A stretch of 64,000 bases of DNA from a virus. The position numbers and the translations under genes were made by a program. Of this stretch, positions 4,481-20,325 are shown piece after piece. Every line of letters begins with the position of its first letter. The stretch's first letter is position 1. The notes below the pieces were generated by a model. That model saw nothing but the letters and a program-made list of their open reading frames with translations. It had not been told where the DNA came from and did no database searches. The DNA is taken from IMG/VR virus record IMGVR_UViG_3300045125_000101, positions 7,823-71,822 of that record; one strand, 5' to 3'.

Positions 4481-5003
4481 CGTGCGTAATAGACTGACAG
4501 CTAAAATAAAAAAAGTCAAGGAAGAATTGGTACTTCGCGAAACAAGTGAAACTCACAGGTTCACCTTCAGAATCAGTCATTATGATCTTATGCCTTCACG
4601 CTCAACTTCAAGGTTTTGATCTCTAGGACTTGAAAGCCATACTCGTCACGATGTTCTTCCCAAGATACAGACATTACTTCATTGGTAGGTTCATTACCAC
4701 ACATGCTATGCTGATATGAGGCAAACATATCCATTATGCTGGATAAGTCTGACAACATCGGCGGAATTGATGAGATCAAGAGCCTCTTGGAGTTTGATTT
4801 TCATTAGTAGTATGTTGGACCATAATCAAGAAAATCAAGGTTTATTTGGCGAAAGTGATGCTAAACAAGCCAGAGCGAACAATCTTCCAGCCCTTGCGCT
4901 GATAGCTTTCAGCAAGCTTGATGCCAGCAATAGTGTCAGTACGAATAGTGATGTGTTTCATACGATGCTTAGACTACCTAAGAAATAAAATAAGTCAAGA
5001 AAA

Positions 5004-5081
5004 TTGTTTGCAATGGCGCGAGCTTTCACGCGCTATTATGGCACAGGGCCATCCTCTCCTTGTCTTTGAGTTCATTGCGAA
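5004..5081 (-). ncRNA. cloverleaf tRNA-like RNA with non-canonical loops
   Basis: Stems GCAATG/CATTGC, CTC/GAG, ATGGC/GCCAT and GCGCG/CGCGC in tRNA order and spacing. Confidence 0.55.
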
Positions 5082-5089
5082 AAAGAACT

Positions 5090-5145
5090 GTTGGTCAAGC
5101 GATGGCATTGAACCATCTTTAATAGACTATTCTATCTCAACCAAC
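5090..5145 (-). ncRNA. 56-nt mini tRNA-like RNA (closing stem, one hairpin, T-arm)
   Basis: GTTGGTTGAG/CTTGACCAAC, ATAGA/TCTAT, GATGG-TTCAATG-CCATC. Confidence 0.5.
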
Positions 5146-5186
5146 AAGAATGAGTATGACTTTTTTATCTAAAAGTCAAGAAAGTA

Positions 5187-5263
5187 TTTGCTCATCCGAT
5201 TCGAACGGATTTTTGTGCAATGCACTATGACCAATCGCCTTGGTACCTCAAGGTTTGAGCAAA
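5187..5263 (-). ncRNA. 77-nt tRNA-like RNA without a recognisable anticodon arm
   Basis: TTTGCTC/GAGCAAA acceptor stem, CCTTG/CAAGG hairpin, perfect T-arm ATCCG-TTCGAAT-CGGAT. Confidence 0.6.
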
Positions 5264-5267
5264 AAAT

Positions 5268-5347
5268 TGGAGCGATGTGAGCCGAACACGCGGCCCGCTT
5301 CTGACGGGAATGTCAGTATGCTTATCGTACATCTACATCAACACCGC
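5268..5347 (-). tRNA. atypical tRNA-Gly(TCC)-like
   Basis: GCGGTGT/ACATCGC, discriminator U, CCA; anticodon stem CTGAC/GTCAG with 6-nt loop ATTCCC; T-stem truncated. Confidence 0.55.
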
Positions 5348-5365
5348 ATAAAAAGAACAAAAATT

Positions 5366-5456
5366 GGTTCATCAAAGCGAGGGAGCCGATCCCTAATCAC
5401 GCTGACCTATGGTTAATTACTCCTTCGGTCACGAGTTCCGCACTAACTTTGATGAA
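5366..5456 (-). ncRNA. 91-nt RNA with a 10-bp terminal stem ending in CCA
   Basis: TTCATCAAAG/CTTTGATGAA+CCA; internal TGACC/GGTCA and AGGGA/TCCCT stems. Confidence 0.6.
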
Positions 5457-5494
5457 AAAGAGAATGACTATTTTTAATTAAAAGTCAAGAAAAT

Positions 5495-5568
5495 TGGTAC
5501 CACCACGGGGAATCGAACCCCGATTTTCGCCGTGAAAGGGCGCTTTCTAACCGTTAGAAGATGGCGGC
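5495..5568 (-). tRNA. tRNA-Glu(TTC)
   Basis: Full cloverleaf, loop CTTTCAC, TTCGATT T-loop, encoded CCA. Confidence 0.95.
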
Positions 5569-5579
5569 ATATCTGAAAA

Positions 5580-5654
5580 TGGAGCCGAGTATCGGACTTG
5601 AACCGATAACCTACTGTTTACAAAACAGTTGCACCGCCATTGTGCTAACTCGGC
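5580..5654 (-). tRNA. tRNA-Thr(TGT)
   Basis: Full cloverleaf, loop TTTGTAA, TTCAAGT T-loop, CCA. Confidence 0.95.
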
Positions 5655-5706
5655 ATCTTAAAAGAACAAGAAGTATGACTTAACTTAAAGAAGAGTCAAG
5701 AAAAAT

Positions 5707-5783
5707 TGGTGGGTCCGGTGGGGTACGATCCCACAGTATTTCGATTAAAAGTCGAAGGCTTTATCCGTTTAAGCTACAGACCC
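5707..5783 (-). tRNA. tRNA-Lys(TTT)
   Basis: Full cloverleaf, loop CTTTTAA, CCA; atypical T-loop ATCGTAC. Confidence 0.92.
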
Positions 5784-5826
5784 ATTAAAAAGAACAAGAA
5801 TAACTATGGACTAAAATTAAGAAATG

Positions 5827-6371
5827 TCAATACTTTTTTGAGTTTTGTGAACCTTTTGTAGTTTCCACCTTTTGGAGATAGACCGCATTTAATCAGAGCT
5901 TGTCTAATTGTTGGCTCGGATTTAATCGCATCAATAGCAGCGGCATCGTCCACTTTATTGCACGATTTTTATTTCTTCCTCTCCAAGTAGGAGTAATACT
6001 ATGGCAGTTCGGGCAAAGAGCAACTAAATTCTGTCGTGAATTATCTTGATGATTTCCGTTGATATGGTCAATCTCAAAAGTCAATAAAGTTCCAAACCAT
6101 TCACTAACTCCACATTTACCACATTTATTTTTTGGTCAAATATTATTTTTTCTCTACGAGCATCACCACCTAATTTTTCAAATGGAGTTTCAGTTAAATA
6201 CTTGACTCTGTTTTCTTCTTTATTTTGGTATCGTCTCGCCGTTCCCTCTGCTTGTTTTCTTCGATATTCATTCCAAGCAGTTGGGTCACTTTTAAGATTT
6301 TCAAGCCACTTTCTGGCGGCTTCTCTTTGCTTTTGTTTTGTTTCTTCTGTTTGTGGTCTTCCTGTTTTCAT
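5827..6371 (-). mobile_element. free-standing HNH homing endonuclease inside the tRNA cluster (frameshifted)
   Basis: EIDHINGNHQDNSRQNLVALCPNCHS HNH motif; NUMOD3-like N-terminus (QTEETKQKQRE). Confidence 0.85.
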
Positions 6372-7546: not shown

Positions 7547-7625
7547 TGGCGCTCTTGGCGGGACTCGAACCCACATTAATCCAGTTATGCGCGTTCTGTT
7601 TAGAAGACAGAGCCAATACAAGAGC
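7547..7625 (-). tRNA. D-armless tRNA-Arg(TCT) with long variable region
   Basis: GCTCTTG/CAAGAGC+G+CCA; TCTGT-CTTCTAA-ACAGA; GTGGG-TTCGAGT-CCCGC; only 7 nt between acceptor and anticodon stems. Confidence 0.75.
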
Positions 7626-7671: not shown

Positions 7672-8139
7672 TTACCAGCTTGACTGATAAGTAAAATCAA
7701 ACTTCTCAAACTTGGGCGACAGCACCTTATCAAGCACATTGATGGTATGCTCCAAGTCCTTTTTGTACCAACTGTCGATTTCTGTGCTGCCGAAGAAGAA
7801 CCCAGAAGTGGGCGTCAGAATGTCTGATGCACCGTCAGCGTCGCCAGCCTCCAGCTTGACCAAAGCAGCACGGCACTCGTTTCGCAGTTCAGCCAGCTTA
7901 TCACGGCTGACGTAATAGCGGGCGCAGTTGTCCTCGCCGCTCTGGACGTTCTGGACAAACCAGTTGTGGATGGCGTTGGCCTTGCGCCAGTAGCCCACCG
8001 TGACGTTGACCGTCATTGAACGTTCAGCGTCACTTTCGTCGAGGTTAAGAAGGCCAAGGATATTGCCAAAGTCCTTGTCCTTGTCGTGGTCGTAGCCCGA
8101 GACGAAACGCTCGGCGTTGAGAAACATGTCAAGTCCCAT
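7672..8139 (-). CDS. conserved phage hypothetical protein
   Basis: MGLDM...VGYWRKANAIHNWFVQNVQ pattern; intact ORF. Confidence 0.85.
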   Translation of the reverse strand: MGLDMFLNAERFVSGYDHDKDKDFGNILGLLNLDESDAERSMTVNVTVGYWRKANAIHNWFVQNVQSGEDNCARYYVSRDKLAELRNECRAALVKLEAGDADGASDILTPTSGFFFGSTEIDSWYKKDLEHTINVLDKVLSPKFEKFDFTYQSSW

Positions 8140-12612: not shown

Positions 12613-14004
12613 TTACACCAAAGTCAGGCTTTCGGCAAGGTCACCATCGTTCAGCGTGTCGAGGCAGTTCAGCTTGTGCTGCACACGATGGCAGATGTTT
12701 TCCTCAATGCACTTGGCAGCATACACGATGCGTTGATAGCTCTTGGTCTTGCCTTCCAGTCGCCATACACGACCCAGCGCCTGGCGCATATTGTAAGCAG
12801 ACCAGTTCGGGCTGATGATGCTGGCACGAGGATACTTGCCGTTGAGGTCGTGCAAGCTGACGCCAGTTCCACCAGCAGCAATGTTTACAACCAGCACTCG
12901 CTTGTTGTCAGCTTGAAATGCATTGATGTCATCAACACGCTGCTTGTCAGTTTGACCGCCAACAATAAACCCAACATTGTTCTTGAACTTGCTGATTTTG
13001 TTCAGTCGCTTTACAATGGCATCCACCGTATCAGCAAAGTTGACAAACAGCACAATGCTCTTGCCTTCGTCGTAAAGATCTTCTGCCATCTCTACAAAAA
13101 GAGGAACCTTGCACAACTCAGCCTTGCGACGAGCTTCCATCATAACAGCAAAGATATGCTCAGAATAGTTTTCTGAACGTTCTTCAAGCTTGGCCAGTTC
13201 AGATTCCATATCGTCATACACGGCCTGGATCTTGCTTTCATTGGCTCCAAGATCATATGCCTCGGCGACAATATGAGATTCCGGAAACTGCTTGCCAAAG
13301 TCCTGTACCTTCATACGGCTGGCGCACTTGGTAGTATCAAACAGATACTCGTTCAAACGCAGCATAGCTTCGCGAGCTTCAGCAGTAGCAAGGTTGAAAG
13401 TCATAGCACCATAACGTGCCATAAGTTCAGCACCGTGCACACGGCAAAAATCGCGAAAGTTGTAGAGTGCGTGCAGATTGGTAAGAAAACCAAACGCCTT
13501 CATTTCAAGGGGCGAGGTCGCAACCGTAGCAGAAGAAACCAGCACCTTGTAGCCTTGAACCTTGAGTGCAACCATCATCCAGCTATTGCTAGTGTCGGTA
13601 CCCTTGCACTTGTGTCCTTCGTCTACCACAATCAGCGTGTTGGGTTCGAAGTTGAAATATGGCATTTCACGCTTGGCATTTTCATTGAACGGCTGAACAG
13701 GATCCTGAAGCTTCTTCCACTTCATGTATTTGGTATTGCCACGGCAAAGCTTCTCATAGTTGATGAGAGTAACCGCCTTGAGCTTGAAGCTGGCAAGGAT
13801 CTTTTGCCATTGATGAATAACACTCTTGGGACAGATAACAGCGAAGGGACGGTTCAGTTCGCGAATAACCGCAGCAGCGGCATATGTCTTGCCTGTGCCC
13901 GTCTCACTCATATCCACGGCGTGACCGTTGAGATAAAGTGAATCTACGAGACGCTGTACGTGCTTGAATTGAGGCTCAAGCAAACCTGTGGTATCGATTT
14001 GCAT
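12613..14004 (-). CDS. superfamily 2 DEXH helicase
   Basis: Walker A ETGTGKT, DEGH, SAT, GGTGVSL, QALGRVWR; intact 463 aa. Confidence 0.93.
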   Translation of the reverse strand: MQIDTTGLLEPQFKHVQRLVDSLYLNGHAVDMSETGTGKTYAAAAVIRELNRPFAVICPKSVIHQWQKILASFKLKAVTLINYEKLCRGNTKYMKWKKLQDPVQPFNENAKREMPYFNFEPNTLIVVDEGHKCKGTDTSNSWMMVALKVQGYKVLVSSATVATSPLEMKAFGFLTNLHALYNFRDFCRVHGAELMARYGAMTFNLATAEAREAMLRLNEYLFDTTKCASRMKVQDFGKQFPESHIVAEAYDLGANESKIQAVYDDMESELAKLEERSENYSEHIFAVMMEARRKAELCKVPLFVEMAEDLYDEGKSIVLFVNFADTVDAIVKRLNKISKFKNNVGFIVGGQTDKQRVDDINAFQADNKRVLVVNIAAGGTGVSLHDLNGKYPRASIISPNWSAYNMRQALGRVWRLEGKTKSYQRIVYAAKCIEENICHRVQHKLNCLDTLNDGDLAESLTLV

Positions 14005-18668: not shown

Positions 18669-18875
18669 TTATTTGTTCAAATATTCTGCGCGTTTTTGCA
18701 GCATCTTTTCTGCTACTTCCCAACTATATTCAACAGCGTGGTCTATAGACAATCCTTTGCTCAAATATCCAACCAATGCTTGAGCAGCATAATAATCTGC
18801 AAGCGTCATGCCTGTGCTAATGATATTTTCCTTTTCTATATAAAAAGGAAGTGCAGGAATATTGCCATATTTCAT
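18669..18875 (-). CDS. phage hypothetical protein
   Basis: PALP...GMTL.DYYAAQAL.G...A..M pattern. Confidence 0.7.
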   Translation of the reverse strand: MKYGNIPALPFYIEKENIISTGMTLADYYAAQALVGYLSKGLSIDHAVEYSWEVAEKMLQKRAEYLNK

Positions 18876-18932
18876 AATCTAATGTGCCGTGATATTAAGC
18901 ATATTAGATGTTTTGGTCAAGTTATAATAAAC

Positions 18933-20325
18933 TTATAGACCAAAGCGGCCTTTTAGGGCGTTATAGTTTTGCAATACTTCGGATGCTGATAATGCTCTGT
19001 TGTATAACAATGTATTGGAAATATTTCCTTTAAAATATCTATGTGAACCATAAGCTGGGCTTCCAAGAGGAATGTTGAATTGGCGGTTGCTAAAAAAGTT
19101 CTATTTGCACTAACCTCCAATCTTCCGTCTAAATATATATATATGGTAGTGCCATCGTAAGAGCACGCTATATTTGAATAGTTGAATAACAATGCTTTCT
19201 GCACAACGCCTACCACTTCGCCTCCTCCCCATATATGCAATACAATAGAATATGTAACGAAGTTTGATCGTGATATTAATATTTCAAAAAGCTGATAAGT
19301 GGTACCGGCTCCTATTCTGCCAATCGAATAGTATCCATCGTTAATCATATCTGTTGGATAAACCCAAGTGCTTAAAGTTCTAGCACCTGTACCAGATATA
19401 CCGACATTATTTGTTCCAACGATAAAATCGTTTGTGCCGTCAAAAACTATACTACCTCCATTAGCACTACTGAATGTTGGCCCATTGGTTAATGTACCGT
19501 CGTATCCATTGCCGCTTAAATCAAAAATAGTATTACTTCCACTAACATAACTTTCTCTGTTTCCTGCATCAAGACACATTACTAATCCATTTGTAACCAA
19601 TCTTGGCGGAACAGAGTTTGTTGCTCGTATTGTATCAAATCTGCCTTTGGTTGCATTATAATTTTCTAATATTTCAGCGGCGGATAATGCTCGGTTGTAT
19701 ACTCGTGCAACTGGTATAACACCGTCTATAACGTTGCCAGATACGGCGGGGCTATCCCACCTTCTGGCTATTCGTATTGCTCCCCCAGAAGTGGCAGTGC
19801 CAGTATATGAAGTGGAGGAAAAAGATTTCCATCAACATATAATTTTATTGTGGCACCGTCATAAGTTCCGCAATAATGATACCATATCCCAGCAGAAGGG
19901 GCGTGTGGACCAGCCGCTCTCCAAGCACCATTGAAAAAAGCGGCGTAAATTCCTTTATTTGCAGTACCTTCTACGTGAGTAGTTAAAGAAAAATTTAAGT
20001 TAGAGCCATTAAATACATTGGTTATTAGTGCAGAGACGGTAAGATTTGCTCCGGGCACGGTTGTAAATTTTACCCAACACTCCGCTGTCCAATTTGATAT
20101 ACTGGATATAGTTTGAGTTTCACCGTATTGAACACTTGTCCGACTAAAGGTCAATGTTCCTTTGTTGTCTGTGCTATATGACGGAGCACCAACTAATGAC
20201 GCACTATTATTATTCCCGCTCAAATCAAACCAAGTATTGCTGCCACTAACAATACTTTTACTATTAGCAGCATCCAAATACAATACCAAACCATTTTTTA
20301 CAACATCGCCAATATATGCACTCAT
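18933..20325 (-). CDS. LamG/concanavalin A-like protein with two tandem domains (frameshifted)
   Basis: VKNGLVLYLDAAN..S....W.DLSGN, then ..EILENYNATKGRFD linker into VTNGLVMCLDAGN; ends QNYNALKGRFGL. Confidence 0.8.

Follow-up and report, generated by a model that had tools for sequence, protein, structure and literature searches.

Transfer-RNA-shaped, apparently non-decoding RNA elements in a tRNA cluster of an uncultured freshwater jumbo phage

Are the five compact, stem-closed elements that lie directly downstream of the tRNA-Lys, tRNA-Thr and tRNA-Glu genes of an uncultured freshwater phage functional RNAs, and if so, of what kind, given that they seem unable to decode? The elements occupy positions 5004-5456, on the minus strand, of a 64,000-nucleotide (nt) stretch of DNA (hereafter the window) that covers positions 7,823 to 71,822 of IMG/VR virus record IMGVR_UViG_3300045125_000101; in genome coordinates they fall at 12826-13278. 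An original prediction, made from the letters of the window alone, had placed five structured elements of 56-91 nt next to these transfer RNA (tRNA) genes, and all five are indeed present, at 56-92 nt; we call them A to E. They are most likely genes for small RNAs in an RNA-only early expression island of a jumbo phage. As judged from sequence comparison, A, B and E appear to be real RNA families, new relative to Rfam 15 and of a known but unexplained kind, that have been selected for shape and not for decoding. For the set as a whole we lean, with somewhat more confidence than doubt, towards tRNA-shaped RNAs that function without decoding, and among mechanisms we favour mimicry.

All five elements close on an acceptor-like helix and carry a hairpin at the position of the T arm, as had been predicted. 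Element A (5365..5456) has a closing helix of 8-10 base pairs (bp), a small hairpin AGU-GCGGA-ACU, a long central arm and a T-position hairpin with the 5-nt loop UCGGC, and it ends in ACCA. Element B (5268..5347) combines a 7-bp acceptor, a 4-bp D-like arm with a 4-nt loop, a 9-nt connector, a 5-bp arm with the 6-nt loop AUUCCC and a 6-bp T-position arm with the 6-nt loop CGUGUU, followed by U and CCA. Element C (5187..5263) closes on a 7-bp helix, is ambiguous in its middle and carries a canonical T arm (AUCCG UUCGAAU CGGAU). Element D (5090..5145), the shortest, has a 10-bp closing helix that includes two G-U pairs; inside it are the hairpin AUAGA-AUAG-UCUAU and a T arm of canonical form (GAUGG UUCAAUG CCAUC). 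G-U pairs are compatible only with an RNA made from the minus strand. Element E (5004..5079) is a four-helix cloverleaf in which a 6-bp closing helix surrounds three hairpins: a D-like arm of 3 bp that bears the loop AAAGAYAAGGA, a 5-bp arm whose loop varies and a 5-bp T-position arm with the 8-nt loop UGAAAGCU. At minimum energy, B, C and E fold into cloverleaf-like shapes, D forms a three-way junction and A gives a single long irregular helix; the four-way shape of A comes only from comparative alignment. Folding z-scores run from -1.0 to -4.2 (the latter for D), and the three neighbouring real tRNAs score -1.9 to -3.1.

The likeness to canonical tRNA thus lies in the order of the cloverleaf helices, the acceptor-like helix on a T-position hairpin, the CCA of B and the T loops of C and D. 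No element offers a readable anticodon in a 7-nt loop with U33: the loop in that position is 6 nt in B, 4 nt in D and 5 or 6 nt in C depending on the alternative fold, and A has a long irregular arm instead. The D- and T-position loops are foreign in A, B and E. A canonical T arm of 5 bp with a 7-nt loop UUCRANY is present in C and D and not in A, B and E, where the loops have 5, 6 and 8 nt; a 7-bp acceptor with a discriminator and a 3' CCA is present and conserved in B. Tools built to find tRNAs miss the elements, as was expected of them. ARAGORN at default settings calls none of A to E and finds no transfer-messenger RNA (tmRNA) at 5004-5456. The Rfam tRNA model (RF00005, gathering cut-off 29 bits) has no match there in a 5.6-kb scan at E<=10, in a 481-nt scan, or in a search of the entire 138-kb record with this family alone at E<=10; that last search detects odd tRNAs elsewhere in the genome at 19-45 bits. 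A permissive Rfam scan of 4990-5470 returned four chance-level matches, none of them to tmRNA, YrlA, mascRNA, viral tRNA-like structures or self-cleaving ribozymes. Under relaxed settings ARAGORN offers a Leu(AAG) model for A, Met(CAU) for B and Tyr(AUA) for C; the models have mismatched stems and conflict with better helices, and we reject them.

The elements are not an assembly artefact, because independent lake-metagenome contigs match the region almost letter for letter. The same odd loops are present in Illumina contigs of relatives, and the idea that polishing the sequence would turn the elements into ordinary tRNAs therefore fails. Nor is a protein gene hidden at 5004-5456: the longest minus-strand open reading frame (ORF) there has 37 amino acids, and overlapping ORFs, including those on the plus strand, have no PHROG match.

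What argues for function is the behaviour of the helices among relatives. A helicase gene at 12613-14004 retrieved nine related IMG/VR loci, and a gapped E pattern retrieved 32 metagenome contigs; phages that keep A, B and E share only 63-87% helicase identity. Homologues exist in related phages with their stems kept, for E, B and A. For E, RNAalifold on 14 distinct sequences recovers the four-helix cloverleaf with two-sided change at 6 of 19 pairs. A covariance model of E finds 39 true copies, including a divergent paralogue that retains both loop motifs. With one spurious row removed (the antisense strand of a tRNA-Lys), the E alignment comprises 16 distinct rows in which 99.3% of cells are paired and 13 of the 19 pairs show two-sided change, a count drawn from a model-fitted alignment and hence biased towards structure. 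The D-position loop AAAGAYAAGGA and the 8-nt T-position loop of E are invariant. Its anticodon-position loop varies in sequence and also in length, from 4-7 nt among main-family members to 11 nt in the divergent paralogue. We reject a role of the purine-rich loop as a Shine-Dalgarno mimic, because AAGGAG reads AAGGCG in one of the clades, and a small ORF within E behind AAGGAG is unconserved in relatives. In related phages E often lies directly upstream of the next promoter and gene. The divergent second member of the family (L134:163-239, minus strand; L140:5122-5198, plus strand; 34.6 bits) occurs in phages that also have a standard E, whose four helices it shares and whose loops it nearly matches with AAAGUAUGGA and UGAAAACU.

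Element B is represented by five distinct sequences from three lineages, in which 96.4% of cells are paired and 4 of 22 pairs change on both sides; its covariation score was reached by none of 500 shuffles. In all three lineages the loop of B has 6 nt with an invariant central UCC, the UCCA end is invariant, and the 7-bp acceptor keeps G1-C72, C2-G71, the discriminator U and an encoded CCA. The covariance model of B weakly matches two tRNAs of the phage itself, tRNA-Thr at 20 bits and tRNA-Cys at 23.5 bits, which carry the same GC.G.GU acceptor and UCCA end; B is thus measurably related to tRNA in build, and perhaps, to go by this resemblance, by descent too. A homologue of B with a 62-nt insertion in the D-like arm is found at L009:18917-19058 and L140:2834-2975, and this lineage retains the acceptor, the arm with the 6-nt loop, the T-position arm and the UCCA end. 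For A, three sequences from two lineages have 100% of cells paired and two-sided change at 6 of 23 pairs, namely 5 of 9 closing pairs and one T-position pair. Survival of the helices through two-sided compensatory changes supports A, B and E as maintained RNAs, and their anticodon-position loops, being too short or too variable, cannot decode.

Element D has one other copy, at related locus L003, which is 98% identical and likewise sits behind a promoter; its sole change turns a G-C pair into G-U. Beyond that copy, exact-pattern scans of IMG/VR with D gave unrelated coding matches only. With a single near-identical copy, D may be either a selected RNA or a decaying one. Within the genome, blastn finds no paralogues of A to E, and the two covariance models find none of E or B; E and B are also single-copy in related records. 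Both are absent from the cultured relatives Microcystis phage Mel-JY01 and Flavobacterium phage immuto. The order and the subset of the modules vary among related phages, and such shuffling is typical of fast-evolving accessory genes. Two more ORF-free blocks of about 90-100 nt (L001:18781-18880 and 19934-20022; L009:18637-18740 and 18805-18905) are conserved between two related phages in the same tRNA island, and L001:19200-19400 holds further structured segments ending in CCA-AUUUU; none of these are in the window.

The elements share their transcription signals with real tRNAs. Upstream lie tRNA-Lys(UUU) at 5707..5783, tRNA-Thr(UGU) at 5580..5654 and tRNA-Glu(UUC) at 5495..5568, all on the minus strand, which carries the genes in this portion of the window; all three are called by ARAGORN and score 61.7, 67.5 and 51.6 bits against the Rfam tRNA model. 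Five minus-strand early promoters between 4970 and 5830, of a phage-wide type that here reads TTGAC(T/A)-N15-17-CAT(A/T)(C/G)T and starts at 5830, 5699, 5488, 5179 and 4998, delimit the units Lys, Thr-Glu, A-B-C, D-E and then a protein gene. The first (TTGACA-16-CATAGT, 5803..5830) drives tRNA-Lys and the second (TTGACT-16-CATACT, 5672..5699) tRNA-Thr and tRNA-Glu; A begins about 7 nt past the -10 box of the third (TTGACT-16-CATTCT, 5461..5488), D about 7 nt past that of the fourth (TTGACT-15-CATACT, 5153..5179), and the last (4970..4998) drives a small protein gene with its ATG at 4960. About 59 minus-strand sites in the record fit TTGAC(T/A)-N14-19-(CAT(A/T)(C/G)T or TANNNT), and those in the early region mostly precede small genes. 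We found no terminators between the units of the 4970-5830 region, so read-through into downstream genes is likely.

A short leader also recurs. It stands as GUUCUUUUUAAU ahead of tRNA-Lys (aaaagaac on the plus strand, 5788-5795), as GUUCUUUU ahead of tRNA-Thr, and as GUUCUUUUU between A and B (5350..5358) and between D and E (5080..5089), in the last two places with no promoter ahead of it. The original prediction had both promoters and leader shared across the five; the promoters are as described, and the GUUCUUU leader precedes B and E only, A and D following their promoters directly and C coming after B by way of AUUUU. Two of the positions given for aaaagaac, 5081 and 5351, are correct, and those given as 5661 and 5791 are really 5660 and 5788. 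GTTCTTT occurs in 23 copies on the minus strand against about 9.5 expected; seven of them precede a tRNA, B or E at a distance of 10-21 nt, and one more stands 18 nt ahead of an unusual 104-nt tRNA. The same motif precedes tRNAs in the genome's second cluster, as it does tRNA-Lys and tRNA-Thr. At the other end, (A)UUU(U) trails most tRNAs as well as A and B.

Is there precedent for such RNAs? To our knowledge, the non-tRNA small RNAs of the T4 and T5 tRNA clusters have been known for some fifty years, and none has been given a function. The T5 record (GenBank AY692264) lists six non-tRNA misc_RNA features (RNAI, RNAIII, RNAIV, RNA1, rna2 and RNA2H) among tRNAs, promoters, small ORFs and HNH genes. 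When folded, the T5 RNAs show terminal closing helices and multi-branched shapes; rna2 and RNA1 have a canonical T-arm hairpin beside the 3' strand, and RNAI ends in GCCA. They thus resemble A to E in lying inside a phage tRNA cluster among internal promoters, in being multi-branched and helix-closed, and in having no assigned function, but they are 103-172 nt long and belong to an unrelated phage lineage, whereas the distant cultured kin of our phage infect Flavobacterium and Microcystis. The E and B models have no match in the T5 tRNA region, which makes these the same kind of element and a different family. T4 makes RNAC and RNAD, small RNAs from its tRNA region whose roles are unestablished (PMC3014915; PMC9697503); these are two RNAs classed as late (PMC9697503), unlike the five behind early-type promoters here, and the likeness to T4 is by description only. 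What A to E share with the T4 and T5 RNAs is to be non-tRNA RNA genes in a phage tRNA cluster with shared transcription signals. A survey of uncultivated IMG/VR phage contigs, which comprises 10,006 models, reports tRNA-like candidates supported by covariation and without an assigned function (Fremin et al. 2023, PMC10690425), and names only five that overlap ARAGORN tRNA calls. Some plant RNA viruses have tRNA-like structures that mimic tRNA shape without decoding, and some of these are aminoacylated (PMC4810235), but they are 3'-terminal parts of RNA genomes built on pseudoknots, whereas A to E are free-standing genes of a DNA phage and not homologous to them.

How might such RNAs be made and what might they do? 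We suppose that A to E would be transcribed highly and early in infection, within the roughly 850 bp (4970-5830) that hold the five promoters, and that host tRNA-maturation enzymes would excise them, RNase P at the leader and RNase E or exonucleases at the CCA-AUUUU trailer. RNase E prefers RN/WUU, which agrees with that trailer. Excision by tRNA-maturation enzymes would be the simplest route because the elements join an acceptor-like helix on a T-position hairpin to leaders and trailers of tRNA type. The excised RNAs might then accumulate in stable form and, as tRNA mimics, engage or draw away a factor that binds tRNA; the likeliest candidate would be a host defence nuclease that targets tRNA, or else a tRNA-processing or charging enzyme. 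The roles put forward in the original prediction, as decoys for anticodon nucleases, as ligands of T-boxes or synthetases or as aminoacyl donors, are likewise conjecture. A role in trans as mimics would fit the invariant loops outside the anticodon position, the dedicated strong early promoters, the shuffling accessory distribution and the tRNA-Lys/Thr/Glu neighbourhood. Nucleases that cut tRNA have tRNA-Glu among their targets. tRNA-Lys too is among the targets, and phage tRNAs are known to counter tRNA-cutting defences (PMC10264068, PMC11464382, PMC11555353). One could go further and see in A to E a diversified, fast-shuffling early repertoire of tRNA mimics that serve as decoys against anticodon nucleases or other tRNA-targeting effectors and complement tRNA-Lys, tRNA-Thr and tRNA-Glu, or alternatively see in B a chargeable non-ribosomal aminoacyl carrier; we offer this as speculation and think it rather doubtful.

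Several points weigh against reading A to E as functional mimics, and they should be taken together. Two run searches and one read mapping gave no RNA evidence for A to E: the metatranscriptome contigs, from two runs, cover only tRNA-Glu and tRNA-Thr. Contigs that carry E are of uncertain library type. Processing by RNase P is not assured, because the closing helix and T-position helix stack to 11-16 bp in A to E rather than the 12 bp of tRNA. CCA is absent from C, D and E, and that of A is in this phage's copy only, its relatives reading GAAAUC; no CCA-adding enzyme was found in the phage record, which is estimated to be 64% complete. With two lineages for A and three for B, their covariation counts stem from few events, and the higher count for E carries the bias noted above. 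That the elements act as decoys is something we can only infer. Element C fits least well. It has no homologue in the related loci or in exact-pattern scans of IMG/VR; in a contig from a near-identical strain it has 4 substitutions in 95 nt, two of which disrupt helices predicted in one or both of its alternative folds, and neighbouring pieces have 0-2. C may be a decaying member of the set. The original prediction of functional RNAs rather than decay is therefore upheld for A, B and E by their compensatory changes, is doubtful for C, and for D has the 98% copy to go on.

C brings up the possibility that all five are decaying tRNA pseudogenes without a function of their own, remnants of duplication and shuffling in a fast-evolving tRNA cluster. 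The canonical T arms of C and D point to descent from tRNA, the range of odd tRNAs in the same genome suggests quick turnover, and C has no homologue and the most substitutions in the near-identical strain. Decay does not explain why A, B and E keep every helix by two-sided substitution across the span of helicase divergence, why more than 30 contigs carry E with its loops invariant, or why B and E have leaders and A and D promoters of their own. We consider decay quite unlikely for the set, and less so for C. It is also possible that the elements work only in cis, as tRNA-like punctuation marks to which RNase P or RNase E would be drawn to cut the dense early transcripts, or as shields for RNA ends or insulators of neighbouring promoters. 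A leader or trailer, or a promoter, flanks every module, the lack of terminators makes downstream read-through likely, and E often stands directly upstream of the next promoter and gene, all of which would suit such modules. But the strictly invariant loops of E and A exceed the needs of a cutting signal, promoters devoted to RNA-only units (5488 for A-B-C, 5179 for D-E) suggest that the RNAs are the product, and a promoter between E and the next gene makes punctuation of that messenger RNA (mRNA) needless. A purely cis role thus seems unlikely to us.

There are two further readings. At least B might be aminoacylated and serve apart from decoding, either to donate its aminoacyl group or to keep a synthetase or elongation factor occupied. 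The acceptor of B, with G1-C72, C2-G71, discriminator U and CCA kept in all lineages, its invariant central UCC and the resemblance of its model to the phage's tRNA-Thr and tRNA-Cys would all be in keeping with charging. B has no unambiguous identity set, however, showing instead a mix of Gly, Thr and Cys features; its 6-nt loop and 13-bp acceptor-plus-T stack may not suit a synthetase; and A, C, D and E have no conserved CCA. Charging is accordingly improbable in our view. More improbable still is that the RNAs regulate host or phage mRNAs in trans by base pairing from a tRNA-like scaffold. The conserved, single-stranded and purine-rich loop AAAGAYAAGGA of E could pair with a target, but one clade reads AAGGCG where others have the Shine-Dalgarno-like AAGGAG, conservation in E is lowest in the loop that is most exposed, and no conserved target was found, none having been sought.

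The record that holds this locus is 138,067 bp long and linear, with its completeness estimated by CheckV. Its kin are uncultured phages of lakes and other fresh water, and one related record of 297 kb rated as complete places it in a jumbo-phage clade. Judged by one 505-amino-acid protein, Flavobacterium phage immuto (46% identity) is the closest cultured phage, followed by Microcystis phage Mel-JY01 (43.5%). The whole record has only 8 stop-to-stop frames of at least 350 amino acids in 138 kb, the longest of 505. Long ORFs are few in the window too, yet no single stop-codon reassignment opens the frames, and we reject an alternative genetic code; the scarcity points to an abundance of small or broken-up genes, or to indel errors beyond the region under study. 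Directly upstream of the tRNA-Lys promoter, two neighbouring small ORFs lie at 5893-6371 (minus strand), and the downstream one (63 amino acids) matches an HNH endonuclease (Pfam, 23 bits); by analogy with the HNH genes of the T5 tRNA cluster, the pair may be a split or frameshifted homing endonuclease. In a related contig with a 65% identical helicase, a GOLLD RNA (L002:15900-16288, plus strand; Rfam 161 bits, cut-off 150) lies about 1.4 kb upstream of that contig's tRNA-Lys, in a region syntenic with the RNA island.

Other odd tRNAs occur in the same genome. At 7547-7625 of the window (minus strand) lies a gene resembling tRNA-Arg(UCU) that lacks a normal D arm and has 17-20 nt between its anticodon and T arms; it scores 36.4 bits with the Rfam tRNA model and is overlooked by ARAGORN. 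The second tRNA cluster contains two CCA-ending, acceptor-closed RNAs, at G000:C1:118639-118713 (minus strand; = L173:18140-18214) and 118883-118974 (minus strand; = L173:18384-18475), that go uncalled by ARAGORN and the tRNA model alike; in one, the 7-nt loop CUUGUAA (anticodon UGU) is combined with a foreign T loop UGCAUGU, and the other is 92 nt long. The 104-nt tRNA mentioned above (G000:C1:104253-104356, minus strand; = L173:3754-3857) scores 43 bits with the tRNA model and is likewise overlooked by ARAGORN. It has the anticodon loop UUUAUAC (UAU, Ile), some 33 inserted nt ahead of its T arm and a GUUCUUU leader upstream.

What does this locus add to the picture of phage RNA genes? It contributes three families supported by covariation, A, B and E, from a clade of uncultured freshwater jumbo phages unrelated to T4 and T5, and with them a set of design rules: the helices and two loops are fixed, the loop at the decoding position is free or shortened, and the signals are those of real tRNAs. 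At 56-92 nt, the RNAs are compact and suited to assays of processing, charging, binding and anti-defence activity. If either the decoy role or that of B as a carrier were true, the extra RNAs familiar from T4 and T5 would, as a class, gain their first function. Tools that find tRNAs and the families of Rfam overlook a class of phage RNA genes in seemingly empty intergenic DNA, and the findings suggest that non-decoding look-alikes of tRNA may be a general and repeatedly evolved part of large phages.

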